Source: Escherichia coli (GTDB lineage Bacteria; Pseudomonadota; Gammaproteobacteria; Enterobacterales; Enterobacteriaceae). From it: a stretch of 64,000 nt of DNA. The translations under genes were made by a program, and so were the position numbers. The stretch's first letter is position 1; each line of letters begins with the position of its first letter. Below the pieces are notes generated by a model. It saw only the letters and a program-made list of their open reading frames with translations. It was not told where the DNA came from and made no database searches. The stretch lies in assembly GCF_046105845.1 (NCBI RefSeq), contig NZ_CP151004.1, one strand, 5' to 3'. Below are positions 1,885-58,548 of the stretch, piece by piece.

Positions 1885-1908
1885 AAGCCGGCGAATGCCG
1901 GCTTTTTT
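1885..1908 (+). terminator. Rho-independent terminator after map
   Basis: Hairpin aagccggc-gaat-gccggctt followed by a run of six T. Confidence 0.7.
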
Positions 1909-1923
1909 AATGCGATAATTTAA

Positions 1924-4614
<2,691 letters not shown>

Positions 4615-5481: not shown

Positions 5482-5510
5482 GGGCAGCACGACGCTGCCC
5501 GATTGCTTTC
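5482..5510 (+). terminator. Putative terminator hairpin after dapD
   Basis: Stem gggcagc / gctgccc with 5-nt loop, followed by a moderately T-rich tract. Confidence 0.45.
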
Positions 5511-5783
5511 TGGTTCAGAATAATTCGTCCTACTCATTCTTCTTCCCCCCTTTTTTAAATACTTTTTCATCTTGTTTCGGACTGTCATGTAATTCGCAAA
5601 ACGAAGATAAATGTGCTAATCCATCCCATGGAATATCGCCACAATAAAGCAGGTAATTTTTTGATTTTTACGCCATGATAGAAGTCTGGAAGAAAAAGGC
5701 TTTCTGCGATCACAGTCGAGCCGGGCGGGCCAGGCCAAATGCTAAAATAAGCACAATTTACTGACTCATTTTGAGGTAACGCT

Positions 5784-16311: not shown

Positions 16312-18294
16312 TTAACGGCTCTGCTTTCTCAACAAATAGATAAAATATGGCGCGCCGATAAAGGTCGACAGCAGCCCCGCTGGGATCTGGAATGGAAACA
16401 GCACCATCCGCCCACACCAGTCAGCGAACACCAGCAGTAAACCACCCACCAGCGCCGAAATTACGATGTGTGGCATCGTCCGTCGAAAGCCCATCATCCG
16501 CGCAATATGCGGTGCCATTAAACCAACAAAACTCAACGGTCCAATAGTCATCGTCGCGGTCGCCGTCAGGCAAGCCGCTAATAGCAGCAGCGCAATTCGC
16601 GTCGGCGTCAGCGCCATTCCTACGGCTCGTGCGGTATCACCGCCCAGCGGTAAAATGGTCAGCCAGCGGCGGCACAGCGGGGTAATCGCCAGCAAAATTA
16701 CCATCGCAATTCCCGTGCGCCAGACCTGCGCATCGGTCGCGTTGTAGGTCGAACCGGAAATCCAAGTCAGAACTTGCGCCATTCGCGGGTCACCACTTGC
16801 CTGCAACATCATCAAAAGCATGGTGAACGCGGTACTTAACGCCATCCCCGCCAGTAGCATGCGGTGTGGGGAAAATCCACCGCGGCCGGCGGCGATCATA
16901 ATGATCAACAGCGTCACCGCCGCCCCGAGACTACCCGCAGGTAACAGCCAGCCAAAGGCATTACCCGGCACCAGAAACAGCATCAACACCACGCCAAACG
17001 CCGCGCCGGAGCTAATCCCCAGCACTTCCGGGCTTGCCATCGGGTTGCCGGTCAGCCGCTGAATAATACAGCCCGCCACCGCCAGCATGACTCCCGCAAA
17101 CAGCGCCGCCATAATTCGCGGCCAGCGCCAGGGCATTAAATCCTCGAGCAACGCCCCGCTCGCCCACGTCCAGCCGTGCGCATCACGGCCAAACGACAGC
17201 GCCACCACCACTGCCATCAACAGCAGCACGCCGCCCGCGAGGGCAAACGCCAGCACATGTTGGCGTTCAGCAGCGACACGATCGTTCACCTTCATATCCG
17301 GCGCGCTAATGCTGCGTAAACGCGGCAGCAGCCAAAGTAGCAGCGGCGCACCTATCAACGCAGTGACCGAACCGGTAGAAACTTCCATCCACACGCGAGT
17401 CAGCCAGAGGATGATTTGATCAGAAAGCCACAGAATTAACGCCCCAATCAGCGACGCCAGCATCAATCGTGGCAACAAACGCCGCGCCCCCAGCATTTTT
17501 GCCAGCAGTGGCGCGAACAACCCGATAAAGCCGATAATCCCCACCGCATTCACCAGCAGCGCACTGATGACTATCGCCAGCGTCAGCGCCGCCAGACGCG
17601 CGAGCGACAAGGCCAGCCCGAGATTGCGCGCCACGCCATCATCAAGCCCCATCAGGGTTAACGGGCGAAGTAGCAATAACGTCAGCATCACGCCGCCCAG
17701 CAGCTGCGGCCATAAACGCTCAACGCCGCCCCAGTCGGTTTGCGTCAGCGTTCCGGTGCTCCACAGAAACATGCTTTGCAGTTGGTCATGATGGAAGATA
17801 ACCAGTAACTGATTGATTGCACCGCAATAAAGGCTCACTACCAGCCCCGCGAGAATCAGCGTTACCGGCGACAGCCGTTTCCCCCACGCGACGCCAAAGA
17901 CAATTAAGCCAACCACACAAGCCCCTGCCAGTGCAGCAAACTGGCTCGCCATAGCACCTGGGATCGCCCAGAGCGTGGTGACGGTAATCCCCAGTTGCGC
18001 GCCTGTAGCAACGCCCAGCGTCGTCGGTTCCGCCAGCGGGTTACGCAGCACTTGCTGAAACAGCACGCCCACCAGCCCCAGGCCCGCGCCCACCAGCAGC
18101 GAAATCGCCAGACGCGGCAGCAAGCTGTAGTGAAAAATCATCTGCTCGATGACATCGATATCCGGCGACCAGGCAGCCTGCGCCCACTGGCTACGCGGCA
18201 GCGCTTGCGAAAAGTTCATCCAGGTGAGCGCCGCTGCGACAATCACCAGCAGCGCCAGCAATAACGCCGGGAAAAGCGCAATTCGTTTACTCAC
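16312..18294 (-). CDS. fhuB: Ferric hydroxamate ABC transporter permease
   Basis: 660-aa ORF MSKRIALFPALLLALLVIVAAALTWMNFSQALPRSQWAQAAWSPDIDVIEQ...; duplicated FecCD-type permease halves. Confidence 0.96.
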   Translation of the reverse strand: MSKRIALFPALLLALLVIVAAALTWMNFSQALPRSQWAQAAWSPDIDVIEQMIFHYSLLPRLAISLLVGAGLGLVGVLFQQVLRNPLAEPTTLGVATGAQLGITVTTLWAIPGAMASQFAALAGACVVGLIVFGVAWGKRLSPVTLILAGLVVSLYCGAINQLLVIFHHDQLQSMFLWSTGTLTQTDWGGVERLWPQLLGGVMLTLLLLRPLTLMGLDDGVARNLGLALSLARLAALTLAIVISALLVNAVGIIGFIGLFAPLLAKMLGARRLLPRLMLASLIGALILWLSDQIILWLTRVWMEVSTGSVTALIGAPLLLWLLPRLRSISAPDMKVNDRVAAERQHVLAFALAGGVLLLMAVVVALSFGRDAHGWTWASGALLEDLMPWRWPRIMAALFAGVMLAVAGCIIQRLTGNPMASPEVLGISSGAAFGVVLMLFLVPGNAFGWLLPAGSLGAAVTLLIIMIAAGRGGFSPHRMLLAGMALSTAFTMLLMMLQASGDPRMAQVLTWISGSTYNATDAQVWRTGIAMVILLAITPLCRRWLTILPLGGDTARAVGMALTPTRIALLLLAACLTATATMTIGPLSFVGLMAPHIARMMGFRRTMPHIVISALVGGLLLVFADWCGRMVLFPFQIPAGLLSTFIGAPYFIYLLRKQSR

Positions 18295-22491: not shown

Positions 22492-25023
22492 TTAATTACT
22501 ACCAAACATATCCTTGATCCAACCGGCTACACCGTCGCTGTCTTTCTGCTCTTGCTGAGCAGGTTGCTGTTGCGGCTGTTGCTGCGGCTGAGAAGACTGA
22601 TCAAACGGATTGCCTGACGGTTGCTGCTGCATCTCACTCTGCTGGCACAGCGATTGCGGATCGCTGGTCCAGACCGGCAAGACACGCATGCCACCGCTGC
22701 AAACAAAGTTGCCGTCGTAGTCCACGCCCATATCTGCAATATCTTCTGGCGGAACAAGATTCAGCGGTGTTGGCGTCTGGTTAGCCAGATAACGCTGATA
22801 AATCGACATTGCCCCGCTGGCTCCATACAGTTTGGTCGGTTGGTTGTTATCACGGCCTACCCAGGTGATGGTCACCGTGCTGCCGTCAATGCCCGCAAAC
22901 CAGGTATCTACGTTATTGTTGGTAGTCCCTGTTTTCCCTGCCAGATGCAGGTTCGGGTATTTCGCCCCAAGCTGACGACCCGTACCGCGTTGTACAACCT
23001 GCTGCATGGTCCATAGTGTCAGATACGCCGCCTGCGCCGGAACAGCGCGTTCCGCCTGCGGGAAGCTCTGATACAGCACTTTGCCATCTTCCGCGATTAC
23101 CGAACGCAGCGCAGAAAGCGGTGCACGGTTACCACCGCTGGCGATGGTCTGGAATGCCTGCGCCACTTCGATTGGCGTTAAGTTCAACGCCCCCAGCAGC
23201 ATTGCCGGAACCGGATGCAGCTGATCTTTCGGTACGCCCAGTTTGATCCAGGTCTCCGTAACCGCAGGCAGCCCCAGCGCCATCCCCAGATTTACCGTCG
23301 GCACGTTCATCGAACGGGTCAACGCATCCACCAGCATCACTCTGCCGCTTTCGCTATAACGACGGTCATCGTTCTGCGGTGACCAGACCTGGCCATTCGG
23401 CTGACGTAGCGCGATTGGCGCATCCGCAATCCACGTGTTCAGGCGATAGATTTTCGGCTGGCTTAAGGCCGTCAGATAAGTCGCTGGTTTTGCAAGAGAA
23501 CCAATCGAACGACGCGCCTGCATCGCACGGTTGTAGCCCGCAAACTGCGGCTCAGAACCACCGACCATCGCACGAACTTCACCACTAAAGCGGTCGACGA
23601 CCACAATCGCAGTTTCAAGATCGCTCAGCTTACGCTGTTTCTTCAGTGCCGGAATGCCTTCCACGGCGGCTTTTTCTGCCGCGTCCTGTGCCACCGAGTC
23701 AAATGTAGTGAAGATCTTCACGCCGGAGAGATCTTTTACCTTATCGCCCAGTTTTGCCTGCAGCTCCTGACGCACCAGTTGCATAAAGGCTGGCTGAGGA
23801 GAGATCACCCCACCGCGCGGCTGAACACCCAGCGGACGTGCACTCAACATGTCATAGAGTTCTTGATCAATAATCTGTTGCTGTTGCAGCAAACGTAGCA
23901 CCAGGTTACGTCGCTCCAGCGCCAGTTTCGGGTTACGCCACGGGTTGTAGATGGACGCCCCTTTCACCATACCCACCAACAGCGCCTGCTGATCGAGGCT
24001 CAATTCTTCTACCGGACGACCAAAGTAATACAAGCTCGCCAGCGGGAAGCCGCGGATTTCGTTGTCGCCGCTCTGACCGAGATACACCTCGTTCATATAC
24101 AGCTCAAGAATACGGTCTTTGCTGTAACGCGCGTCCATGATCAGCGCCATGTAAGCTTCGTTCGCTTTACGCCAGTAAGAGCGCTCGCTGGAGAGGAACA
24201 GGTTTTTCACCAGCTGTTGCGTCAGCGTACTCGCACCCTGCACCGTGCGTCCGGCGGTCAGGTTTGCCAGCACCGCACGTCCGATGGAGTAGAGACTGAT
24301 CCCATCATGCTCGTAGAAATGGCGGTCTTCTGTCGCCAGCAAAGTATCCACCAGCAAATCAGGGAAACCACTGCGCGGCACAAACAGACGTTGCTCACCG
24401 TTTGGCGAGGAGATCATGGTGATCAGGCGCGGATCAAGACGGAAGAAACCAAACTGACGGTTGTTCTCCATATTGACGATGGTCGCCAGATGATCGCCAT
24501 CAAAGGTCAGACGCGCACGCACCTGCCCTTCTTTACTGTCCGGGAAATCAAACGGACGGCGGATCATCTCAATGCTGTTGGCCTGCACGGTAAATTCGCC
24601 AGGACGGGTCATTTTCGACACCTGACGATACTGGGTCGCCTCCAGCAGCTTCACCATCTCGTTCTTGCTGATGGTCATGTCTGGCTCAAGGTTGACCATC
24701 CGGCCATAAACTGCCGCGGGCAGTTGCCAGACCTTACCATCAATACGGCTGCGAATTTTTTGATCGAGATAAACGCCGTAAATGGCGATCAGCACGGCAA
24801 AAACGATAGCCAGTTTTAGCAGCAGCCATAGCCAGCCGCGTTTGCCACGAGGCTTACGCCCTTTGCCTTTGCCCTTACCTTTGCGTGGCATCGGTTCTTC
24901 ATCCTCATAGTCATCATAATCGTCGTAATCGTCATCTTCGTAACGACGACGGCTTACCTTTTGTTTGACCGGACGCGTCGGTTTCCCTTTGCGTCCAATT
25001 GGCTCGCGGTCATTCCCGGCCAT
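22492..25023 (-). CDS. mrcB: Penicillin-binding protein 1B (bifunctional glycosyltransferase/transpeptidase)
   Basis: ORF 22492-25038 (-); start taken at [23 protein letters not shown] (843 aa); acidic [14 protein letters not shown] and KGKGKGKG tracts then transmembrane helix. Confidence 0.95.
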
Positions 25024-25116: not shown

Positions 25117-27546
25117 TCACGAATACTTTTTCGTCCGTCGCGTCGGTGCAGTATTTGCCGGGTCGTCCGGCCAGACATGTTTGGGATAACGCCCTTTCAT
25201 CTCTTTTTGCACCTCACGGTACGCTCCTTTCCAGAAGGCGCTCAAATCTCGTGTGATTTGTAATGGCCTTTGGGCAGGGGAAAGCAACTCCAGCACCAGC
25301 GGCACGCGCCCCTGGGCGATCGTCGGATTGGTGGCCTCACCAAACATCTCCTGCATTCTCACCGCCAGCGCGGGCGGGTTATCTTCATGATAACGAATGG
25401 CGATTCGGCTTCCCGTCGGCACAGTGTAATGCGCAGGCAATTCACTATCCAGACGTTGCTGCATTCCCCAATCAAGTAATCCGCGTAGTGCCTGATAAAT
25501 GTCGAGTGATTTCAGGCCGCGTAGTGAATGCACGCCGCTCATATGCGGCAGTAGCCACGTTTCCAGCGTCGCCAACAAACTCTCATCATCAACCGCTGGC
25601 CAGTCATATTCCGGCAACCACTTTGCGGCGCATAACAAACGCAAGCGTAGCTGTTCCGCTTCCGCCGTCCAGTTGAGCACGCTTAAACCTTTATCACGAA
25701 TGCCGTTAAGCATCGCCTGATGCAACTCGTCTTCCGAGGGTTTCGCCAGTGGCTGCACTTTCACCGTCAACTGACCGATTTGCAGCCGACGCCAGGCTTT
25801 CAGCGTACCTTGCGCGTCATCCCACTCCACAGTGTCAGACTGCTGTACCAGCTGCGGGCAGAGTTGTACTAATTCATCGATATCGACCGGTAGCGCCAGT
25901 AAAATCCGCGCATCCGGCGAGGCGCTGCCCTGCAATAATAACGGTGCGATCAACCATTCGTGGCGGCTTAGCGCATCGTCGGCATCGAGCATCGCCCCCA
26001 TGCCGTTTGCCAGTTGATAGCGTCCATCTTGCCCACGGCGACGAGCAATGCGATCGGCATACGCCCCGGCAAGTAGCGGCGCGATAAGCGAACTGTCTGC
26101 CTCACCGCCGCGTACGTTTAAACGTTTTAACAGTTGCTGACTACGTTGCTGCCAGGCGGGTTGATTGCGCGAAAACTCCACGCCCAGGTCACTATTGCCC
26201 ATCCGTGGCGGCTCTTCGAGAATGGCGGCAATTTTTGCCGCGGTAGCAGCTTCGTCGTCGTTCTTCGCGCTAACCAGCATTGCCGCTAAACGCGGATCGT
26301 TACCCAGCGCTGCCATTTTTTGCCCTTGCGCACTAAGCCGTTCACCGTCCAGCGCCCCCAGCATCCGTAACAGGCGTTTCGCGGCCAGTAGATTCACCGT
26401 TGGCGGTTGATCCAGCCAGCTCATCTGCGCCGGATCGCTGCATCCCCATTGCAGTAATTCCATCAGCAAACCGGAAAGATCGCTTTGTAATATTTCCGGT
26501 TCACTTTGCGCCGCGGCGCGTTCGGCTTGTTCTTTGGCGATTAAATGCAGGCAGATACCCGGCTCCAGACGCCCGGCGCGCCCGGCACGCTGCGTCATGG
26601 ATGCCTGGCTAACGCGTTGAGTAATCAGTCGCGTAAGCCCCGTGCGCGGATCAAAACGCGCCACACGCTCCTGGGCACAATCCACCACCAGACGAATACC
26701 TTCAATGGTTAAACTGGTTTCAGCAATATTGGTCGCCAGCACCACTTTGCGCATCCCTTGCGGTGCCGGGAGGATCGCTTTTCGTTGATCGTTCAGCGAC
26801 AACGCGCCATACAGCGGGCAGAGCAACACATCACTGCCGATGCGCGAAGCCAGTTGTTCCTGCACGCGCTGAATTTCTCCGACGCCAGGTAAAAATAACA
26901 GTAATGATCCACTTTCCTGACGCAGCGTTTCGGCGGTGGCTACCGCAACGGCTTCGTCAAAACGCTGATGCGCGGGCAGCGGTAAATAACGGCGTTCAAC
27001 CGGAAACGAGCGCCCTTCTGAGATGACGACGGGCGCTCCTGGCAGCATTTGCTGCAAGCGGTCGTTGTCCAGCGTAGCCGACATAATCAGCAGTTTAAGG
27101 TCATCACGCAGACCTTGTTGCACATCGAGTAACAGCGCCAACGCCAAATCCGCCTGCAAGCTGCGCTCATGAAACTCATCGAGGATCACCAATCCAACAC
27201 CGCTCAGTTCAGGGTCACGCTGGATCATGCGCGTCAGCACGCCTTCGGTAACCACTTCCAGGCGGGTATTCGGCCCGACGCAGTTTTGCGCACGCATCCG
27301 GTAGCCAACGGTATCGCCTGGCTTTTCGTTAAGCAGCTCCGCCAGTCGTTGCGCAACGTTACGCGCCGCCAAACGACGCGGCTCCAACAGGATAATTTTC
27401 CCGTTAATGCCGGGATGCGCCAGCAGTTGCAGCGGCAGCCAGGTTGATTTCCCGGCCCCGGTCGGCGCACTTAATAACACCTGCGATGCACAATCGAGAG
27501 CGGTAAGTAATTCAGGTAAGACGGCAGCAACGGGCAACGACGACAC
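25117..27546 (-). CDS. hrpB: ATP-dependent RNA helicase HrpB (DEAH-box)
   Basis: ORF 25117-27591 (-); GTG at 27544-27546 gives VSSLPVAAVLPELLTAL... (809 aa), the length I recall for HrpB; motifs GAGKST and DEFH. Confidence 0.85.
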   Translation of the reverse strand: MSSLPVAAVLPELLTALDCASQVLLSAPTGAGKSTWLPLQLLAHPGINGKIILLEPRRLAARNVAQRLAELLNEKPGDTVGYRMRAQNCVGPNTRLEVVTEGVLTRMIQRDPELSGVGLVILDEFHERSLQADLALALLLDVQQGLRDDLKLLIMSATLDNDRLQQMLPGAPVVISEGRSFPVERRYLPLPAHQRFDEAVAVATAETLRQESGSLLLFLPGVGEIQRVQEQLASRIGSDVLLCPLYGALSLNDQRKAILPAPQGMRKVVLATNIAETSLTIEGIRLVVDCAQERVARFDPRTGLTRLITQRVSQASMTQRAGRAGRLEPGICLHLIAKEQAERAAAQSEPEILQSDLSGLLMELLQWGCSDPAQMSWLDQPPTVNLLAAKRLLRMLGALDGERLSAQGQKMAALGNDPRLAAMLVSAKNDDEAATAAKIAAILEEPPRMGNSDLGVEFSRNQPAWQQRSQQLLKRLNVRGGEADSSLIAPLLAGAYADRIARRRGQDGRYQLANGMGAMLDADDALSRHEWLIAPLLLQGSASPDARILLALPVDIDELVQLCPQLVQQSDTVEWDDAQGTLKAWRRLQIGQLTVKVQPLAKPSEDELHQAMLNGIRDKGLSVLNWTAEAEQLRLRLLCAAKWLPEYDWPAVDDESLLATLETWLLPHMSGVHSLRGLKSLDIYQALRGLLDWGMQQRLDSELPAHYTVPTGSRIAIRYHEDNPPALAVRMQEMFGEATNPTIAQGRVPLVLELLSPAQRPLQITRDLSAFWKGAYREVQKEMKGRYPKHVWPDDPANTAPTRRTKKYS

Positions 27547-27619
27547 AAAACGCTCCAGAGGGTTAACATTCTTCGCGGCACATTGTAGCATCGCGGTAAT
27601 TCATAACCGAGTGCCTCAC

Positions 27620-30465: not shown

Positions 30466-30524
30466 GCTATGATTAGCCGCTATTTTTTTGTCCTGAATGA
30501 TGTTTGACACTACCGAGGTGTACT

Positions 30525-31922
30525 ATTTTTACCCGAGTCGCTAATTTTTGCCGCAAGGTGCTAAGCCGCGAGGAAAGCGAGGCTGAACAGGCAGTCGCCC
30601 GTCCACAGGTGACGGTGATCCCGCGTGAGCAGCATGCTATTTCCCGCAAAGATATCAGTGAAAATGCCCTGAAGGTAATGTACAGGCTCAATAAAGCGGG
30701 ATACGAAGCCTGGCTGGTTGGCGGCGGCGTGCGCGACCTGTTACTTGGCAAAAAGCCGAAAGATTTTGACGTAACCACTAACGCCACGCCTGAACAGGTA
30801 CGTAAACTGTTCCGTAACTGCCGCCTGGTGGGTCGCCGTTTCCGTCTGGCTCATGTTATGTTTGGCCCGGAGATTATCGAAGTTGCGACCTTCCGTGGAC
30901 ATCACGAAGGTAACGTCAGCGACCGCACGACCTCCCAACGCGGGCAAAACGGTATGTTGCTGCGCGACAACATTTTCGGCTCCATCGAAGAAGACGCCCA
31001 GCGCCGCGATTTCACTATCAACAGCCTGTATTACAGCGTGGCAGATTTTACCGTCCGTGATTACGTTGGCGGTATGAAGGATCTGAAGGACGGCGTTATC
31101 CGTCTGATTGGTAACCCGGAAACGCGCTACCGTGAAGATCCGGTACGGATGCTGCGCGCGGTACGTTTTGCCGCCAAATTGGGTATGCGCATCAGCCCGG
31201 AAACCGCAGAACCGATCCCTCGCCTCGCTACCCTGCTGAACGATATCCCACCGGCACGCCTGTTTGAAGAATCGCTTAAACTGCTACAAGCGGGCTACGG
31301 TTACGAAACCTATAAGCTGCTGTGTGAATATCATCTGTTCCAGCCGCTGTTCCCGACCATTACCCGCTACTTCACGGAAAATGGCGACAGCCCGATGGAG
31401 CGGATCATTGAACAGGTGCTGAAGAATACCGATACGCGTATCCATAACGATATGCGCGTGAACCCGGCGTTCCTGTTTGCCGCCATGTTCTGGTACCCAC
31501 TGCTGGAGACGGCACAGAAGATCGCCCAGGAAAGCGGCCTGACCTATCACGACGCTTTCGCGCTGGCGATGAACGACGTGCTGGACGAAGCCTGCCGTTC
31601 ACTGGCGATCCCGAAACGTCTGACCACGCTAACCCGCGATATCTGGCAGTTGCAGTTGCGTATGTCCCGACGTCAGGGTAAACGCGCCTGGAAACTGCTG
31701 GAGCATCCTAAGTTCCGTGCGGCTTATGACTTGTTGGCCTTGCGAGCTGAAGTTGAACGTAACGCTGAACTGCAACGTCTGGTGAAATGGTGGGGTGAGT
31801 TTCAGGTTTCCGCGCCACCAGATCAAAAAGGGATGCTCAACGAGCTGGATGAAGAGCCGTCACCGCGTCGCCGTACTCGTCGTCCACGCAAACGCGCACC
31901 GCGTCGTGAGGGTACCGCATGA
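30525..31922 (+). CDS. pcnB: Poly(A) polymerase I
   Basis: ORF 30504-31922 (TTG-initiated in track); pcnB is known to initiate at AUU, placed here at ATT 30525-30527 giving [22 protein letters not shown]... (465 codons); nucleotidyltransferase motif [10 protein letters not shown]. Confidence 0.85.
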
Positions 31923-32398: not shown

Positions 32399-32767
32399 TT
32401 TATTTATATTGCGAATATAAATATTATCTGAAAATCACACCACCTCTCTTTCCTTAATAACGATTTTACTTTAAACATTTTTATAGAAACATAATATAAA
32501 TTCCCGCAGATAAATATCAATCCCATCTCCATACCCTAACCAATTGCACTTGTGAACTTATTTTTACTTAATTTTGAATTAAGTAAATTTAATTTGTTCA
32601 AAAGCTTCTAAAGTGCACAATAGGCGACCTAATGAACAATGGTTGTAAATTTGGGTAACAAATATCATTGCTCATTAATATCTAACATTTGTTTCTCCTA
32701 TTTGTGTCATGAATAGTCATTCTTCAAACATGTAGTCTGACTAATGGAATTTTATTCAAGGATTTTT
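32399..32767 (+). promoter_or_regulatory. AT-rich leader / promoter region of the yad fimbrial operon (candidate H-NS silenced region)
   Basis: 369 bp with very high A+T content and A/T tracts, in sharp contrast to flanking coding DNA; no ORF. Confidence 0.6.
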
Positions 32768-33352
32768 ATGTCTAAAAAATTAGGTTTTGCCCTGTCTGGT
32801 CTTATGCTGGCAATGGTTGCAGGTACTGCTTCTGCTGATATGGACGGTGGTCAGTTAAATATCAGTGGCCTGGTTGTTGATAACACCTGTGAAACCCGCG
32901 TTGACGGCGGTAACAAAGATGGCCTGATCCTGCTGCAAACCGCAACCGTTGGTGAAATCGATGCAGGCGTACTCGAAACTACCGTTGGTGCCAAGGCTAA
33001 ACCTTTCAGCATCACCGTTGATTGCAGCAAAGCAAACCCTGCACCGGGCAGCTCTGCCAAAATGACCTTCGGTTCCGTGTTCTTTGGTAACAGCAAAGGT
33101 ACGCTGAACAACGATATGTCTATCAATAACCCATCTGACGGTGTGAATATTGCTCTGCACAACATTGACGGTTCCACTGTTAAGCAGGTAAAAATTAATA
33201 ATCCTGGCGATGTTTACACTAAAGCACTGGACGCGACCACTAAATCTGTAACCTATGATTTTAAAGCATCCTATGTTCGTGCTGTAAATGACCAGACGGC
33301 AACTGCTGGTTATGTAAAAACCAATACCGCATATACCGTTACTTATCAGTAA
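32768..33352 (+). CDS. yadN: Major fimbrial subunit (pilin)
   Basis: ORF 32744-33352; start taken at [23 protein letters not shown] (signal peptide, 194 aa); pilin-type C-terminus ...YTVTYQ. Confidence 0.9.
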
Positions 33353-33457
33353 TATTTCACCGAATTAATTGATTTAGTGAATATATAGGGAATAACATTG
33401 CCTGTAATTATGACAATGATTATTCCCTGTTCTAAATAATTCGATCAGGGATGGTTT

Positions 33458-34198
33458 ATGTTTTTTAATACAAAACATACTGTAGCATTATGCTTTGCAA
33501 CCTGTTTAGCTTTTAGCTCTTCAGCTATTGCAGATATCGTCATTTCAGGTACACGCGTTATTTACACAAGCGATCAAAAAAGTGTCAATGTACGTCTGGA
33601 AAATAAAGGCAATAACCCATTGCTGGTCCAGAGTTGGTTAGATACCGGAGATGATAACGCCGAACCTGGCAGTATCAATGTCCCATTTACGGCGACTCCC
33701 CCTGTTTCACGTATTGACGGCAAACGCGGTCAAACAATCAAGCTGATGTATACCGGCAGTTCTGCTTTACCCAAAGATCGGGAAAGTGTGTTTTGGTTCA
33801 ATGTCCTCGAAGTTCCACCAAAACCCGACGCGGAAAAAATGGCTAACCAAAGCATGTTGCAACTGGCCTTCCGTACTCGCATCAAACTGTTTTATCGTCC
33901 GGAAGGACTCACCGGAATACCGTCCGATGCTCCGGCTGCACTGAAGTGGTCGTGGACAACATCCGGCGGCAAAGTGGCGCTTCGTGTCGTTAATCCTACC
34001 CCCTTCTACGTCTCTTTCAGCAGTGGTGACGTTGTCGCCAGCGGAAAGCGTTATCCGTTAGACGTCAAAATGATCGCGCCACGCAGTGAAGATGCCATCA
34101 CAGTTAATGGGATCAGTAGCAAAGTGAGTTCTGCACAAGTTCACTTCTTTGCCATTAATGATTTTGGCGGCGCAATTGAAGGCAATGCCACTCTGTAA
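33458..34198 (+). CDS. ecpD: Periplasmic fimbrial chaperone (PapD-like)
   Basis: 246-aa ORF MFFNTKHTVALCFATCLAFSSSAIADIVISGTRVIYTSDQKSVNVRLENKGNNPLLVQSW...; also named yadV. Confidence 0.93.
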   Translation: MFFNTKHTVALCFATCLAFSSSAIADIVISGTRVIYTSDQKSVNVRLENKGNNPLLVQSWLDTGDDNAEPGSINVPFTATPPVSRIDGKRGQTIKLMYTGSSALPKDRESVFWFNVLEVPPKPDAEKMANQSMLQLAFRTRIKLFYRPEGLTGIPSDAPAALKWSWTTSGGKVALRVVNPTPFYVSFSSGDVVASGKRYPLDVKMIAPRSEDAITVNGISSKVSSAQVHFFAINDFGGAIEGNATL

Positions 34199-34232
34199 AG
34201 TCTTCAGGATCACACGCAGCAGGAAGCAAAAC

Positions 34233-36833
34233 GTGAACAAAAAAACAACTACAAATTATCACTATCCCCTTACACATATCGCCACGTTTTGCGCACTGCT
34301 TTACAGCAGTAGTGCTTTAAGCGCCGAGCACGTTGAGTATGACAATACCTTCCTGATGGGTCGTGATGCTTCAAATATTGATCTTAGTCGCTATAGCGAG
34401 GGTAACCCAACATTACCAGGCCTTTACGACGTCAGCGTTTATATCAACGACCAGCCCGTCACCAACCAGAGCATTGCCTTTGTTACGGTTGAGGGTAAGA
34501 AAAACGCTCAGGCTTGTCTCACCCTGAAGAACTTATTGCAGTTTCATATCAATCAACCCGATATCAATGTTGCTAATGCCGTGCTGCTTGCAAGGGACAA
34601 CGAACTCGGGGATTGCCTCAACCTGGCGGAACTCATCCCCCAGACGTCGATTCGTTATGATGTCAACGATCAGCGCCTGGACATCTATGTTCCCCAGGCA
34701 TGGGTAATGAAAAATTACCAAAACTATGTTGATCCTTCCTTGTGGGAAAACGGTATCAACGCTGCAATGTTGTCTTACAACGTCAACGCATATCACAGTG
34801 AAAGCCCCGACAGGAAAAATGACAGTGTTTATGCTGCTTTTAATGGCGGTATGAATTTAGGAGCATGGCGGTTACGCGCTACCGGTAACTACAGTTGGAG
34901 GAATGATTCAGACAGTAACTATGACTTTCAGAATCGCTACCTCCAGCGCGATCTCGCATCCTTACGCTCGCAGTTAATTGTCGGTGAGTCATATACCACG
35001 GGTGAAACCTTCGATTCAGTCAGCATTCGGGGAGTTCGCTTATATAGCGACAGTCGCATGTTACCCCCTGCGTTAGCCAGTTTTGCGCCAATTATTCATG
35101 GTGTTGCGAACACTAACGCCAAGGTCACTATTACCCAGGGCAGTTATAAGATCTATGAAACCACCGTACCGCCAGGTGCGTTTGTCATCGATGATCTTAG
35201 CCCATCGGGTTACGGCAGCGATCTTATCGTCACTATTGAAGAAGCGGATGGTTCAAAGCGTACTTTCTCACAACCATTTTCATCAGTTGTACAGATGTTA
35301 CGGCCAGGCGTCGGGCGCTGGGATATCAGCGGTGGTCAGATCATAAAAGACGATATTCAAGACGAGCCCAATCTTTTTCAGGCCAGTTATTACTACGGTT
35401 TAAACAACTATCTGACCGGTTATACCGGGATCCAACTTACTGACAATCATTACACTGCCGGATTACTGGGTCTGGGCCTGAATACCTCTTTAGGTGCTTT
35501 TTCATTCGATATCACCCATTCAAATGTCAGCATTCCGGATGATAAAACCTATCAGGGGCAAAGCTATCGCCTCTCCTGGAACAAATTATTCGAAAATACC
35601 AATACATCGCTAAATATCGCGGCTTATCGCTATTCAACGCAGAATTACCTTGGCCTTAACGACGCACTGACTTTAATCGACGAAGTAAAACATCCGGAAC
35701 AGGACCTCGAACCGCAAACCATGCGTAACTACTCTCGCATGAAAAATCAGGTGACGGTCAGCATTAGCCAACCGCTGAAATTTGAGAAACAGGATTACGG
35801 TTCATTCTATCTCACCGGGGATTGGTCAGATTACTGGGCTTCCGGGCAAAATCGCAGCAATTACTCTATTGGTTACAGTAATAGCGCTTCCTGGGGGAGT
35901 TACAGCATCAGTGCACAACGTTCATGGAATGAGGATGGTGAAACGGATGATAGCATCTACCTTAGTTTCACCATTCCAATTGAAAAATTATTAGGCACAA
36001 GCCATCGCGATTCCGGTTTTCAGAGTATTGATACTCAGTTAAATAGTGATTTTAAAGGCAATAATCAGCTCAACATCAGCAGCAGTGGCTTTAGCGACGC
36101 AAATCGCGTCAGTTACAGCGTAAACACCGGCTATACAATGATGAAAGCCAGTGACGATTTAAGTTACATCGGTGGTTATGCCAGTTACGAATCGCCCTGG
36201 GGAACGCTTGCAGGTTCCGTTTCCGCAAGTAGCGATAACAGTCGTCAATTCTCGCTTAATACTGACGGTGGATTCGTGCTGCACAGCGGCGGCCTGACAT
36301 TCAGTAACGATAGCTTTAGCGACTCCGACACACTTGCCGTTGTACAAGCCCCTGGAGCAAAAGGTGCGCGCATTAACTATGGCAACAGTACAGTAGACCG
36401 CTGGGGATACGGCGTGACCAGTGCCCTCTCGCCATATCATGAAAACCGTATCGCTCTGGACATTAGCGGAATCGAAAATGATGTAGAAATGAAATCTACC
36501 AGTGCAATTGCCGTCCCTCGTCAGGGCTCTGTTGTCTTCGCCGATTTTGAAACCGTCCAGGGACAATCGGCAATCATGAATATTAAACGTACTGACGGTA
36601 AAAATATTCCATTCGCGGCGGATATCTTTGATGAACAAAATAACATGATTGGTAACGTCGGCCAGGGCGGACAAGCTTTTGTTCGAGGCATCGAACAGCA
36701 AGGTAATATCCGCATCAACTGGGTTGAAGAGGGTAAACCTGTCGCATGTATTGCCCATTATAAGCAAACAGCGGATCAACAAAAATTAACACAAACTATT
36801 ATTCTGAATGGAATTAGTTGTCAGATACAGTAA
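34233..36833 (+). CDS. htrE: Fimbrial outer membrane usher
   Basis: ORF 34149-36833 overlaps ecpD; start placed at GTG 34233 after AGGAAG ribosome-binding site, giving (M)NKKTTTNYHYPLTHIATFCALLYSSSALSAEHVEYDNTFLMG... (866 aa). Confidence 0.88.
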   Translation: MNKKTTTNYHYPLTHIATFCALLYSSSALSAEHVEYDNTFLMGRDASNIDLSRYSEGNPTLPGLYDVSVYINDQPVTNQSIAFVTVEGKKNAQACLTLKNLLQFHINQPDINVANAVLLARDNELGDCLNLAELIPQTSIRYDVNDQRLDIYVPQAWVMKNYQNYVDPSLWENGINAAMLSYNVNAYHSESPDRKNDSVYAAFNGGMNLGAWRLRATGNYSWRNDSDSNYDFQNRYLQRDLASLRSQLIVGESYTTGETFDSVSIRGVRLYSDSRMLPPALASFAPIIHGVANTNAKVTITQGSYKIYETTVPPGAFVIDDLSPSGYGSDLIVTIEEADGSKRTFSQPFSSVVQMLRPGVGRWDISGGQIIKDDIQDEPNLFQASYYYGLNNYLTGYTGIQLTDNHYTAGLLGLGLNTSLGAFSFDITHSNVSIPDDKTYQGQSYRLSWNKLFENTNTSLNIAAYRYSTQNYLGLNDALTLIDEVKHPEQDLEPQTMRNYSRMKNQVTVSISQPLKFEKQDYGSFYLTGDWSDYWASGQNRSNYSIGYSNSASWGSYSISAQRSWNEDGETDDSIYLSFTIPIEKLLGTSHRDSGFQSIDTQLNSDFKGNNQLNISSSGFSDANRVSYSVNTGYTMMKASDDLSYIGGYASYESPWGTLAGSVSASSDNSRQFSLNTDGGFVLHSGGLTFSNDSFSDSDTLAVVQAPGAKGARINYGNSTVDRWGYGVTSALSPYHENRIALDISGIENDVEMKSTSAIAVPRQGSVVFADFETVQGQSAIMNIKRTDGKNIPFAADIFDEQNNMIGNVGQGGQAFVRGIEQQGNIRINWVEEGKPVACIAHYKQTADQQKLTQTIILNGISCQIQ

Positions 36834-36849
36834 CAACAAGGAATCTCAC

Positions 36850-37416
36850 ATGATAAAAATAGCACCCTATAAATTGGCGATACTGACGGGAATAATGTTA
36901 TCTCCTTGTGTATTAGCTACGGATATTAATGTCGAATTTACGGCAACCGTAAAAGCAACGACATGTAATATTAAGATAACCGGTAATAATGTCACCGAAG
37001 ACGGAAATGACAGTTATACGTTAACATTACCCAATATGGGTCTGGATCAAATAGTAAATAAAACCACCAGGGCCCAGGCTGACTTTACGATGGTAGCCAG
37101 TGGTTGCAGTGCAGGTATCAGCCATATTGATACTACATTGTCAGGTAATGGGTCCCGAACCTTTGATAGACTTGTTATACCGCTGTCTTCAGACACCACA
37201 TCAACCACCAGTTATATCGGTATGGGGTTCAAAAAACGTAATGCTGGTGATGAAACATTTTTAAAACCAAACAGCGCAGAAAAAATACGCTGGAGTGCAA
37301 CAGAAATTAGTACCACAGGTCTGGAAATGACCGTGGCACTACGTGAAACGAGCGCAGGTGAGGGGATACCCGGAGACTTTCGTGCTCAGGCAATTTTCAA
37401 TTTCACCTATGAATAA
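36850..37416 (+). CDS. yadM: Fimbrial minor subunit
   Basis: ORF 36808-37416; start taken at MIKIAPYKLAILTGIMLSPCVLA (signal peptide, 188 aa). Confidence 0.85.
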   Translation: MIKIAPYKLAILTGIMLSPCVLATDINVEFTATVKATTCNIKITGNNVTEDGNDSYTLTLPNMGLDQIVNKTTRAQADFTMVASGCSAGISHIDTTLSGNGSRTFDRLVIPLSSDTTSTTSYIGMGFKKRNAGDETFLKPNSAEKIRWSATEISTTGLEMTVALRETSAGEGIPGDFRAQAIFNFTYE

Positions 37417-37430
37417 CAAGGATGACAATG

Positions 37431-53344: not shown

Positions 53345-54211
53345 ATGGCTGAAAAAAAACAGTGGCATGAAACGCTACACGACCAGTTTGGGCAGTACTT
53401 TGCGGTAGATAACGTTCTGTATCATGAAAAGACCGATCACCAGGATCTGATCATTTTTGAGAACGCTGCATTTGGTCGCGTAATGGCGCTGGATGGCGTA
53501 GTACAAACCACCGAGCGCGACGAGTTTATCTATCATGAGATGATGACCCATGTTCCGCTACTGGCCCACGGTCACGCGAAACATGTGCTGATTATCGGCG
53601 GCGGCGACGGTGCCATGCTGCGTGAAGTAACCCGACATAAAAACGTTGAGTCAATCACGATGGTGGAAATCGATGCGGGTGTCGTGTCGTTCTGCCGTCA
53701 GTATCTACCCAACCATAACGCCGGTAGCTACGACGATCCGCGCTTTAAACTGGTGATCGACGATGGCGTCAATTTCGTTAATCAAACCAGCCAGACCTTT
53801 GATGTCATTATCTCCGACTGCACCGATCCTATCGGTCCCGGCGAAAGTCTGTTCACCTCAGCATTTTATGAAGGCTGCAAACGTTGCCTGAATCCTGGCG
53901 GTATCTTCGTCGCACAAAACGGCGTCTGCTTTTTACAGCAGGAAGAGGCTATCGACAGTCATCGCAAACTCAGCCATTACTTCAGCGACGTTGGCTTTTA
54001 TCAGGCGGCGATCCCGACCTATTACGGCGGCATCATGACCTTTGCATGGGCGACAGATAACGACGCCTTACGCCATCTCTCAACCGAAATTATTCAGGCG
54101 CGTTTTCTCGCCTCTGGCCTGAAATGCCGTTATTACAATCCAGCAGTCCATACGGCAGCTTTTGCCTTACCCCAGTATCTGCAAGACGCACTGGCTTCAC
54201 AGCCGTCCTAA
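53345..54211 (+). CDS. speE: Spermidine synthase
   Basis: 288-aa [64 protein letters not shown]... Confidence 0.97.
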
Positions 54212-54226
54212 GGAGAAGATAAGAAA

Positions 54227-55021
54227 TTGAAAAAACTGAAACTGCATGGCTTTAATAATCTGACCAAAAGTCTGAGTTTTTGTATTTACGATATCTGCTA
54301 CGCCAAAACTGCCGAAGAACGCGACGGTTATATTGCTTATATCGATGAACTCTATAATGCCAACCGTCTGACCGAAATCCTGTCAGAAACCTGTTCCATT
54401 ATCGGGGCCAATATTCTTAACATCGCCCGCCAGGATTACGAACCACAGGGTGCCAGCGTCACTATTCTGGTGAGTGAAGAACCGGTTGACCCGAAACTCA
54501 TCGACAAAACAGAACACCCCGGCCCACTGCCAGAAACGGTCGTTGCCCATCTCGATAAAAGTCATATTTGCGTACATACCTACCCGGAAAGCCATCCTGA
54601 AGGCGGTTTATGTACCTTCCGCGCCGATATTGAAGTCTCTACCTGCGGCGTGATTTCTCCGCTGAAGGCGCTGAATTACCTGATCCACCAGCTTGAGTCC
54701 GATATCGTAACCATTGATTATCGCGTGCGCGGTTTTACTCGCGACATTAACGGTATGAAGCACTTTATCGACCATGAGATTAATTCGATTCAGAACTTTA
54801 TGTCTGACGATATGAAGGCGCTGTATGACATGGTGGATGTAAACGTCTATCAGGAAAATATCTTCCATACCAAGATGTTGCTTAAAGAGTTCGACCTTAA
54901 GCACTACATGTTCCACACCAAACCGGAAGATTTAACCGACAGCGAGCGCCAGGAAATTACCGCTGCGCTGTGGAAAGAAATGCGCGAGATTTATTACGGG
55001 CGCAATATGCCAGCTGTTTAA
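54227..55021 (+). CDS. speD: S-adenosylmethionine decarboxylase proenzyme
   Basis: 264-aa ORF starting at TTG (M)[47 protein letters not shown]...; pyruvoyl-enzyme family. Confidence 0.95.
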
Positions 55022-55596: not shown

Positions 55597-58194
55597 TTAA
55601 ACCGCAGTCTGGAAAATCACCCCATCGGCTTTTTCGGTGTACTGAGAAAGCTGGTTGAAGTTCAGGTAACGGTAAGTATCAACGGCAGTTTTATCCACCT
55701 GCGCCACGTAGGTCTGGTACTCTTCCGGCGTCGGCAGTTTGCCAATCAGCGCCGCAACAGCAGCCAGTTCCGCAGAAGCCAGGAAGACATTCGCGCCAGT
55801 ACCCAAACGGTTCGGGAAGTTACGGGTAGAGGTGGAAACCACCGTCGCACCGTCTGCTACACGCGCCTGGTTACCCATACACAGGGAACAGCCAGGGATC
55901 TCGATACGCGCACCACTCTTACCGAAGACGCTGTAGTAGCCTTCTTCGGTCAACTGCGCGGCGTCCATACGGGTTGGCGGTGCCACCCACAGGCGGGTCG
56001 GCAACTGGCCTTTATGCGCATCCAGCAGTTTACCCGCAGCACGGAAGTGACCGATGTTGGTCATGCAGGAACCGATAAACACTTCGTCGATCTTCTCACC
56101 CTGTACCGCAGACAGCGGACGTGCGTCATCCGGATCGTTCGGAGCACACAGGATTGGCTCTTTAATATCCGCCAGATCGATGTCGATCACTGCCGCGTAT
56201 TCCGCATCTGCATCGGCTTCCAGCAGCTCAGGATTCGCCAGCCATTTTTCCATGCCCTGAATACGACGTTCCAGGGTACGACGATCGCCGTAACCTTCCG
56301 CGATCATCCACTTCAGCAGGACGATGTTGGAGTTCAGGTATTCGATGATCGGTTCTTTGTTCAGCTTGATAGTACAACCAGCGGCAGAACGCTCGGCGGA
56401 CGCATCGGTTAGCTCAAAGGCCTGCTCAACTTTCAGATCCGGCAGACCTTCAATTTCCAGAATGCGACCAGAGAAGATGTTTTTCTTGCCTTTCTTCTCA
56501 ACGGTCAGCAGACCTTGTTTGATCGCATACAGCGGAATGGCGTGTACCAGATCGCGCAGGGTGATGCCCGGCTGCATTTTGCCTTTGAAGCGCACCAGAA
56601 CGGATTCCGGCATATCCAGCGGCATTACGCCTGTTGCGGCTGCAAATGCCACCAGACCAGAACCCGCCGGGAAAGAGATACCGATCGGGAAACGGGTATG
56701 GGAGTCACCACCGGTACCGACGGTATCCGGCAGCAGCATACGGTTCAGCCAGGAGTGGATTACGCCGTCACCCGGACGCAGCGACACACCGCCACGGTTC
56801 ATAATGAAGTCCGGCAGCGTGTGGTGCGTATTCACGTCAACTGGTTTCGGATACGCCGCGGTGTGGCAGAAAGACTGCATCACCAGGTCAGCCGAGAAGC
56901 CCAGACACGCCAGGTCTTTCAGTTCATCACGGGTCATCGGGCCGGTGGTGTCCTGTGAACCTACAGAAGTCATTTTCGGTTCGCAGTACGCGCCCGGACG
57001 AATGCCTTTCACACCGCAGGCACGACCGACCATTTTCTGCGCCAGCGAGAAGCCGCGATCGCTCTCAGCGACATCTTTCGCCTGACGGAACACATCGCTG
57101 TGCGGCAGACCAAGTGCTTCACGCGCTTTGGTGGTCAGGCCACGCCCGATAATCAGCGGAATACGGCCGCCAGCACGCACTTCATCAATCAGCACGTCGG
57201 TTTTCAGTTCGAAGGTCGCCAGCAGTTCGCCGGTTTCGTGGTTACGCACTTCACCTTTGTACGGGTAAACGTCAATTACGTCGCCCATGTTCAGGTTAGA
57301 GACGTCCACTTCAATTGGCAGTGCACCCGCATCTTCCATCGTGTTAAAGAAGATGGGTGCAATTTTACCGCCGAGGCACAAACCACCGCCGCGTTTGTTC
57401 GGCACATGTGGAATATCATCGCCCATAAACCACAGTACGGAGTTCGTGGCGGATTTACGCGAAGACCCCGTACCCACAACGTCACCGACGTACGCCAGCG
57501 GGAAACCTTTCTGTTGCAGAGCTTCGATTTGCTTGATCGGACCAACAACACCTGGCTGGTCTGGCTCAATACCTTCACGGGCGTTTTTCAGCATCGCCTG
57601 CGCGTGCAGCGGGATATCCGGGCGTGACCACGCATCCGGTGCCGGAGAAAGGTCATCGGTGTTGGTTTCGCCAGTTACTTTAAAGACGGTAACGGTCAGT
57701 TTTTCAGCCAGCGCCGGGCGATTCAGGAACCATTCGGCATCCGCCCAAGACTGCATTACCTGCTTCGCATATTCGTTGCCTGCTTTCGCTTTCTCTTCTA
57801 CGTCATAGAAATTATCGAACATCAGCAGCGTGTGAGAAAGTGCTTTGGCAGCGATCGGTGCCAGTTTGGCATCATCCAGCGCGTCGATCAGCGGATGAAT
57901 GTTGTAACCACCCTGCATGGTGCCCAGCAGTTCGATGGCTTTTTCCGGAGTCAGCAGTGGGGATTTGGCTTCACCTTTCGCGACAGCAGCCAGGAAGCCT
58001 GCTTTGACATAGGCGGCTTCATCGACGCCAGGGGGAACACGGTTGGTTAATAGATCTAACAGGAATTCTTCTTCGCCCGCGGGCGGGTTTTTCAGCAGCT
58101 CTACAAGTGCGGCCATTTGGTTTGCATCCAGGGGTTTGGGCGCAATCCCCTCAGCGGCACGCTCAGCTACGTGCTTACGGTATTCTTCTAGCAC
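55597..58194 (-). CDS. acnB: Aconitate hydratase B (2-methylisocitrate dehydratase)
   Basis: ORF 55597-58347 (-); GTG at 58192-58194 preceded by GAGGAGAA gives (M)[29 protein letters not shown]... (865 aa). Confidence 0.93.
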
Positions 58195-58548
58195 GACGGT
58201 TCTCCTCGCTCTCATTGTCATAGTGCGGCAGGCGATTCTCTTCACGCTCCTGTGAGACAGCAGTTTGTAGGGTAAATGCCCAGTACCGCAACGGGCAGAA
58301 TAGCAGGATTTTGACGATGTGTTAATCTGTTTACAAAAAAGCAACATAAAAAAGTGGCTGAATCGTTAAGGATGGTCTAGAGATTGTTTCCCTCCGTAAA
58401 AACCTCGTTAATTCGCATGGTGATAATCACCTTTCTCAACGAATCCCAAGATTAGTCAAAATTTAAACTACCGCCTCTTTATACTCGGAATCACAGCACC
58501 TGCGGGTGGCAGTTCGCCGACCATTGCGATTTCCTTGAGATCCGAATT

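Follow-up and report, generated by a model that had tools for sequence, protein, structure and literature searches.

The 64,000-nucleotide stretch of Escherichia coli DNA analyzed here (contig NZ_CP151004.1; hereafter, the window) raises the question of where translation begins in five of its genes, acnB, hrpB, panC, htrE, and speD, for which a first-pass annotation had chosen GTG or TTG start codons on the ground that no suitably placed ATG was present. The 64 kb of the window form a chromosomal segment of the E. coli type that extends from rpsB to aceF, and its counterpart in K-12 MG1655 is located at approximately 125.8–190 kb in the reversed orientation. Our analysis indicates, with a probability of roughly 0.85, that translation of the five genes genuinely has its primary start at these codons. 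This reading is based on the identity of the starts with those of K-12, the end-to-end alignment of the family models, the conservation across species and alleles, and the initiation, N-terminal, and transcription start site (TSS) data published for K-12.

The sequence bears out all five codons at the positions proposed for them. Those of acnB and hrpB, for which the strand had been left unstated, are located on the minus strand, and the plus strand reads CAC at both. The alignment to curated orthologs, which had been proposed as a check, shows that all five starts match those of K-12 MG1655 in position and in codon type, where b0118 (acnB), b0148 (hrpB), b0133 (panC), and b0139 (htrE) start with GTG and b0120 (speD) starts with TTG. 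The description of such starts as routine is consistent with this identity, and the biology of the five starts is already known, as all of them are contained in the curated K-12 annotation. The product lengths are equal to those in K-12 except for HtrE, which has 866 residues in the window and 865 in K-12. The lengths were also said to be typical of the families, and the alignments with the family models agree: all five proteins exceed the NCBIfam equivalog cut-offs, and the models align from position 1–3 at the chosen starts. The coordinates given by the Prokaryotic Genome Annotation Pipeline (PGAP) in the closest RefSeq genomes agree for acnB, speD, hrpB, and panC. The claim that these are the least certain coordinates in the feature list is justified in one case, htrE, where the PGAP start differs.

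The Shine-Dalgarno (SD) score, given as the pairing energy with the anti-SD sequence, was computed for the in-frame start candidates. The five starts have SD pairing energies of −4.3 to −9.1 kcal/mol at a spacing of 6–11 nt, where htrE is the weakest. With respect to ribosome profiling and N-terminal peptides, which had been proposed as a further check, the published K-12 data support acnB, panC, and speD, and weakly htrE; hrpB is without a signal. The Ribo-RET values cited below are those re-tabulated in Table S2 of the INRI-seq study, for which the peak threshold is 5.

The statement that there is no suitably placed ATG is correct for panC and speD, where the chosen codon is the first possible start after an in-frame stop. 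The coding sequence (CDS) of panC occupies 40863–41714 on the plus strand (283 residues), and its GTG at 40863–40865, which is the same in K-12 and in PGAP, is located 7 nt after AAGGAG. The stop codon TAA of panB overlaps this SD sequence (TAAGGAG, 40849–40855). Between the upstream in-frame stop and ATG(+18), no start candidate other than the GTG is found; the number in parentheses gives, here and below, the codon position relative to the chosen start. In the supplement of the TRAINSPOTTER N-terminomics study, a PanC peptide of residues 1–11 is reported from GTG at NC_000913:148793–148795; it is assigned there to the database starts that use near-cognate codons, and support from Ribo-RET and INRI-seq is noted. 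Among the five genes, PanC is the only one for which an N-terminus decoded from a near-cognate start has been shown in K-12. INRI-seq Table S2 gives values of 149–244 at this start. PanC scores 435 bits against TIGR00018 (pantoate–beta-alanine ligase; cut-off, 212.75), with residues 1–281 aligned to positions 1–283 of 283 in the model, and distant PanC structures also align from residue 1, as in 2EJC (1–280 to 1–279). The near-cognate codon of panC was compared with K-12 only. The downstream ATG(+18) was considered as a start and rejected, since the detected N-terminal peptide and the alignments with the family model and with solved structures all speak against it, and the start of panC at GTG is practically beyond doubt. 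In the same K-12 N-terminomics data, PanC has an additional N-terminus inside the protein, at Met117, and the corresponding ATG (41211–41213, plus strand) and the peptide sequence are kept in the window.

The CDS of speD occupies 54227–55021 on the plus strand (264 residues), and its TTG at 54227–54229, again the same in K-12 and in PGAP, is located 11 nt after AAGGAG, which is overlapped by the stop codon TAA of speE (TAAGGAG, 54209–54215). An in-frame stop is found five codons upstream, and no other ATG, GTG, or TTG is present among the first 60 codons. SpeD scores 491.5 bits against TIGR03331 (E. coli type; cut-off, 255.8), where residues 3–261 are aligned to positions 1–259 of 259, and INRI-seq shows a peak of 35–61 at this start in K-12. 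The TTG is kept in all 80 Enterobacterales species loci, from Escherichia to Photorhabdus, whereas at 15 four-fold-degenerate third positions within the first 60 codons the major allele has an average frequency of 0.62, with no invariant position among them, which indicates that the weak codon itself is under purifying selection. Text searches of the literature, which did not cover the classical N-terminal sequencing paper on SpeD, yielded nothing direct on the UUG start. The assignment of the speD start to TTG is as near to certainty as that of panC.

For acnB, hrpB, and htrE, the absence-of-ATG argument is wrong, because each of them has open in-frame ATG codons upstream, although the conclusion drawn from it is right. 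The CDS of acnB occupies 55597–58194 on the minus strand (865 residues), and its GTG at 58192–58194 is identical to the curated K-12 GTG at 131615 and to the PGAP start. It is preceded at a distance of 7 nt by the SD sequence GAGGAG (58202–58207), whose pairing of −8.9 kcal/mol is the best among the in-frame candidates. Three upstream ATG codons are decoys in the same frame: ATG(−9) at 58221–58219 and ATG(−7) at 58215–58213, both in the 5′ leader (58213–58221), and ATG(−51) at 58345–58347, which opens a mechanical open reading frame (ORF) of 916 residues and is without an SD sequence (+0.3 kcal/mol). The GTG and GAGGAG are invariant in 36 of the 36 Enterobacterales loci that reach acnB. AcnB scores 1717.7 bits against TIGR00117 (bifunctional aconitate hydratase 2; cut-off, 1287.2), with residues 1–854 aligned to positions 1–844 of 844, and all 865 residues are matched by those of the crystal structure 1L5J (1–865 to 1–865), which is consistent with the GTG start and is not independent of the annotation. 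At the annotated start in K-12, values of 412–493 by INRI-seq and 191 by in vivo Ribo-RET are reported; no alternative acnB start is found among the non-annotated starts of INRI-seq Table S3 or in its Ribo-RET column.

The leader containing ATG(−7) and ATG(−9) is almost invariant within the Escherichia–Enterobacter group. A 1-nt deletion in the loci of Pantoea, Erwinia, Rahnella, and Serratia, however, shifts both codons out of frame, and the two Yersinia loci extending to acnB (L072 and L074) contain neither of them. Since they are out of frame or missing in these genera, they are not the conserved start. The major acnB TSS of K-12 determined by Cappable-seq, 131519, is located 96 nt upstream of the GTG and projects to 58290 in the window, so that ATG(−51) is located 57 nt upstream of it. 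Cappable-seq shows no K-12 TSS in 131440–131499. Because the major TSS is downstream of ATG(−51) and none is present in that interval, ATG(−51) is off the main transcript. In the 175 nt of the leader, the window is identical to K-12 except for one base. Thus, the upstream in-frame ATG codons were rejected as starts of acnB by the comparison of genera, the major TSS, and the lack of a listed alternative start, and the GTG is the start of acnB with near certainty, slightly short of that for panC and speD. Text searches of the literature, in which the classical N-terminal sequencing paper was not covered, gave no direct N-terminal data for AcnB, and AcnB, SpeD, and HrpB are absent from the TRAINSPOTTER dataset of K-12. 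The 22 nt preceding the GTG (aatgagagcgaggagaaccgtc) are almost invariant in many enterobacterial genera.

The CDS of hrpB occupies 25117–27546 on the minus strand (809 residues), and its GTG at 27544–27546 corresponds to the curated K-12 GTG at 162105 and to the PGAP start. The SD sequence GGAG (27553–27556) is located 6 nt before it, with −6.2 kcal/mol compared to −2.4 kcal/mol for the upstream ATG. This ATG(−15), at 27591–27589, is a decoy embedded in an extended −10-like element, TGcTACAAT (TACAAT at 27587–27582), with which it occupies 27582–27591, and the K-12 TSS projects to 27574. The nearest Cappable-seq TSS, 162077 in K-12, falls between the two codons, 15 nt downstream of ATG(−15) and 28 nt before the GTG; here, the coordinates of U00096.2 and NC_000913.3 are assumed to be equal in this region, which is consistent with the fit of the TSS to the −10 element. 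The reading of the element as an extended −10 is derived from this TSS, as the consensus promoter scan made no minus-strand promoter call for hrpB and its sole output was TTAACA-17-TAGCAT on the plus strand. This plus-strand sigma-70-like element is located at 27563–27591 in the 73-nt divergent intergenic region between thpR and hrpB, where it overlaps the −10 element that serves hrpB on the opposite strand, and it may be the promoter of thpR.

HrpB scores 1510.1 bits against NF008662 (ATP-dependent helicase HrpB; cut-off, 1053), with residues 1–809 aligned to positions 1–812 of 813, and both crystal structures of HrpB used the 809-residue form. The homologous start position carries a near-cognate codon in both E. 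coli and Citrobacter. When the 45 nt from ATG(−15) to the GTG are compared with those of Citrobacter, 4–6 differences without an excess at third positions are found, whereas the first 150 nt after the GTG show 38–40 differences in a coding pattern, for example, 13, 4, and 21 by codon position; from this pattern of substitutions, the 45-nt stretch is conserved as DNA rather than as protein. The 120 best homologues of HrpB reached only Citrobacter, and diverse representatives were therefore taken from a library at 50% identity, in which the full-length ones are 41–53% identical. With the 824-residue HrpB as the query, approximately 140 of the 150 best diverse representatives align from query residue 16–19 or later, mostly from their own residue 2–10. 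The start of hrpB is based only on the TSS, comparative, and family evidence, which is the least direct support of the five, and the GTG is nevertheless very probably the start.

The largest uncertainty concerns htrE, which encodes the usher of the yad fimbrial operon. Its CDS from the GTG at 34233–34235 occupies 34233–36833 on the plus strand (866 residues), and this GTG is equivalent in position to the curated K-12 GTG at 155426 and follows AGGAAG (34221–34226) at a distance of 6 nt. PGAP starts the gene at the in-frame ATG(−16) at 34185–34187, which is a probable decoy that gives an 882-residue model with a 14-nt overlap with the chaperone gene. A further in-frame ATG(−25) is located at 34158, and no stop is present between the upstream ATG codons and the GTG. 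PGAP places the usher start at the ATG equivalent to 34185 in both window-type records fetched, NZ_CP151009 and NZ_CP039404 (WP_047938328.1 and WP_062859914.1). The 882-residue call spans 34185–36833 in the window and 1886–4534 in locus L003, and it begins at 386 in locus L007, where the CDS is cut at the locus end; the other alleles fetched have 862–866 residues. The yad operon (yadN to yadC, approximately 32700–39950) is a rare and highly divergent allele set between the conserved flanks folK and panB, and the start regions of yadK and yadL are only about 70% identical to those of K-12. The window carries a minority type of this allele: 91 of 5,426 genomes match its chaperone/usher junction at at least 95%, and about 4,500 carry alleles that are 60–80% identical. 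The start-region segment of htrE is 77% identical to that of K-12, where the GTG is preceded by an in-frame TAA that the window allele does not have.

Eight alleles, the window and seven others, were compared at the chaperone/usher junction. The annotated usher start of K-12 and of five further allele classes is 35 nt after the chaperone stop, which is the position of 34233 in the window. An in-frame TAA is found 7–11 codons upstream of the usher start in five of the seven other alleles (K-12, 2013C-4081, IMT5155, AR_451, and P19_598); because this stop intervenes, the upstream ATG is unusable in them. In APEC 102026, the upstream ATG is absent, and in EC21Z-144, the most divergent allele, an ATG occupies the position of the GTG. 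The sequence gcAGGAAGc followed by a start at the chaperone stop +35 is conserved in eight of the eight alleles. The ATG(−16) itself consists of letters of the Asn-Ala codons (AAT-GCC) near the C-terminus of the chaperone, read out of frame. The 882-residue version scores 1652.3 bits against NF007337 (cut-off, 830), and its residues 19–882 are aligned to positions 3–865 of 865, from which position 1 of the model corresponds to residue 17, that is, to the GTG at 34233. A weak INRI-seq peak of 7.6–13.3 is reported at the GTG in K-12. In P19_598 (L013, NZ_CP067241, position 446), PGAP places the usher start on an ATC four codons downstream of the conserved GTG, which may be a non-canonical call or an annotation oddity.

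Several observations weigh against the reading that all five codons are the primary starts, and they are considered here together with the alternatives that they favor. All the experimental initiation, N-terminal, and TSS data were obtained for K-12, and they would transfer to the strain of the window on account of the identical or nearly identical leaders. For hrpB, the K-12 INRI-seq and Ribo-RET values at the GTG are all zero, without a peak, and the INRI-seq construct did not contain the upstream ATG, so that ATG(−15) is outside that in vitro test. The lack of a peak at the GTG favors translation from the ATG at 27591 into an 824-residue protein, as in some Citrobacter annotations and in the mechanical longest ORF; the ATG and the 15-codon frame are common to E. 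coli and Citrobacter, and records of 809/810 and of 824 residues both exist. However, the mapped TSS is downstream of this ATG, the ATG has essentially no SD sequence, the 45-nt stretch has a non-coding substitution pattern, and the GTG is where the distant homologues and the two NCBIfam models start and where the K-12 curators and PGAP place the start, which makes the longer protein highly improbable. An extended product of acnB is only marginally easier to accept. In this case, a minor proteoform with nine additional residues (MTMRARRTV-) would be made from the ATG at 58221, for example, via a leaderless transcript. Cappable-seq shows two minor K-12 TSSs, one at 131588, exactly on the A of ATG(−9), with a score of 14.9, and one at 131615, on the G of the GTG, with a score of 10.4, compared to 158.8 for the main TSS, and both would give leaderless transcripts; the ATG at 58221 is also kept in frame in Escherichia, Citrobacter, Enterobacter, and their relatives. 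Against this proteoform, the INRI-seq table and the Ribo-RET column contain no alternative start, the frame of the extension is not conserved outside the Enterobacter–Escherichia group, and the leader has other reasons to be conserved, as it contains the ribosome-binding region. RyhB is reported to bind at the ribosome-binding site of acnB, where it keeps the 30S subunit from binding, and this may explain why the leader is conserved.

The most substantial alternative concerns htrE, for which the usher of the window allele would be translated from the ATG at 34185 (882 residues), alone or alongside the GTG, with a signal-peptide N-region that is 16 residues longer and more basic. The frame of the window allele is open from this ATG to the GTG, so that its use is physically possible; PGAP selects it in both records of the same allele, and the SD scores are similar, with −4.8 kcal/mol for the ATG and −4.3 kcal/mol for the GTG. 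In addition, the signal peptides of ushers can be long, as in FimD. On the other hand, GAAGG is only 2 nt from this ATG, which is a poor spacing; an in-frame TAA blocks its equivalent in five alleles, including K-12, and APEC 102026 does not have it at all; the start at stop +35 with AGGAAG is conserved in all the alleles compared; and NF007337 begins at the GTG. The GTG is better supported than the PGAP ATG. A start of htrE at the GTG is accordingly likely, with less assurance than for the other four genes, translation from the ATG is unlikely, and the 882-residue usher of PGAP looks like a 16-codon over-extension in a minority yad allele. As read from the sequence, the mature usher would be identical with either start, and the difference would be confined to the cleaved signal peptide, with the cleavage between MNKKTTTNYHYPLTHIATFCALLYSSSALSA and EHVEYD.

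With the GTG and TTG codons as the starts, the initiation at the five genes can be described as follows. The initiator tRNA would decode the GUG or UUG as formyl-methionine, and the SD sequence located 6–11 nt upstream would position each near-cognate codon. Three of the genes, panC, speD, and htrE, are downstream operon genes. For panC and speD, initiation is probably coupled to the termination of the upstream gene, which is suggested by the overlap of the upstream TAA with the SD sequence (TAAGGAG). The upstream in-frame ATG codons would then be incidental, arising in the conserved 5′ leader for acnB, in the −10 element of the promoter for hrpB, and in the C-terminal codons of the chaperone for htrE.

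The frequency of non-ATG starts in the window was determined by projecting every curated K-12 CDS start onto it, by which 54 genes were mapped. ATG is the start codon of 47 genes, GTG of five (acnB, hrpB, panC, htrE, and fhuB), TTG of one (speD), and ATT of one (pcnB). Non-ATG codons thus account for 7 of the 54 starts (13%), and GTG and TTG for 6 of 54, compared to approximately 18% non-ATG starts reported for well-annotated bacterial genomes, consisting of approximately 14% GTG and 4% TTG. An enrichment of non-ATG codons is ruled out, as 7 of 54 is slightly under the expectation; the frequency is unremarkable, and there is nothing to explain. Two of these starts were not in the list of the first-pass annotation. 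The start of fhuB is a GTG at 18292–18294 on the minus strand, which overlaps the stop codon of fhuD (GTGA) and has a strong SD sequence, GGAGG (−10.8 kcal/mol); in the published K-12 data, neither INRI-seq nor Ribo-RET has a peak there. The start of pcnB is an ATT (AUU) at 30525–30527 on the plus strand, projected from the curated K-12 ATT, with the SD sequence GAGGTG (−7.2 kcal/mol). The 240-nt start segment of pcnB is 100% identical to that of K-12, and the mechanical ORF opens at the TTG at 30504. No other start codon in the window is as unusual as this AUU.

Apart from the starts, the window differs from K-12 in several respects. The gene yaeI, which has 813 nt in K-12 and is located there between dapD and yaeH, is not present at 5505–5633, where approximately 842 nt of K-12 sequence is replaced by 129 nt. 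In yacH (58549–60498, plus strand), a tandem repeat with a unit of 96 nt (32 residues) is located at 59938–60265 in 3.4 copies with a 90% match, and YacH has 649 residues compared to 617 in K-12, which is exactly one added repeat unit. Both annotated starts of mrcB, that of the full-length PBP1B and the internal ATG of PBP-1B-gamma, are conserved (24889–24891 and 25021–25023, minus strand), and the full-length product has 843 residues compared to 844 in K-12. The products of rpnC (42062–42994, minus strand) and cueO have 310 and 517 residues, compared to 300 and 516 in K-12, respectively. Among 5,426 complete E. coli genomes, none is identical to the window; the best identities are 98.5% for the speD–acnB segment, 99.3% for hrpB, and 98.7% for yad–panC, with another strain as the best match in each case, and this suggests a mosaic or an unsampled lineage.

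The value of these results is mostly annotation hygiene, with little beyond it. The comparison of alleles settles the inconsistency in usher length between RefSeq/PGAP records (882 residues, compared to 865–866 elsewhere). Rules such as the longest ORF or the nearest ATG would mis-start acnB, hrpB, htrE, and pcnB in the window, which indicates that the choice of a start calls for comparative or TSS evidence and not for the absence of an ATG.

In comparison with known systems, the five starts have the SD sequence at 6–11 nt and the usual frequency of GUG and UUG initiation in bacteria in general, and nothing distinctive is seen. The AUU-initiated genes infC and pcnB, the only two E. coli genes with a confirmed start of this kind, form a different class; the window keeps the ATT of pcnB, whereas the five genes considered here use common near-cognate codons. 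The invariant UUG of speD might be a selected regulatory device, acting via the coupling to speE or via a response to polyamines, rather than a tolerated weak codon, which is a speculative and rather unlikely reading of its conservation. To our knowledge, no polyamine dependence of SpeD translation is known. Polyamines have been reported to stimulate initiation at UUG or GUG in cya, spoT, cra, uvrY, frr, and gshA; the criterion applied to gshA is a stimulation that is lost once AUG replaces UUG. Similar to these polyamine-modulon genes with inefficient start codons, speD has a UUG and a role in polyamine metabolism, although it is not mentioned in the paper on that modulon. If such a response did exist, the UUG of speD would give bacteria an equivalent of the translational control by which synthesis of the eukaryotic S-adenosylmethionine decarboxylase senses polyamines.

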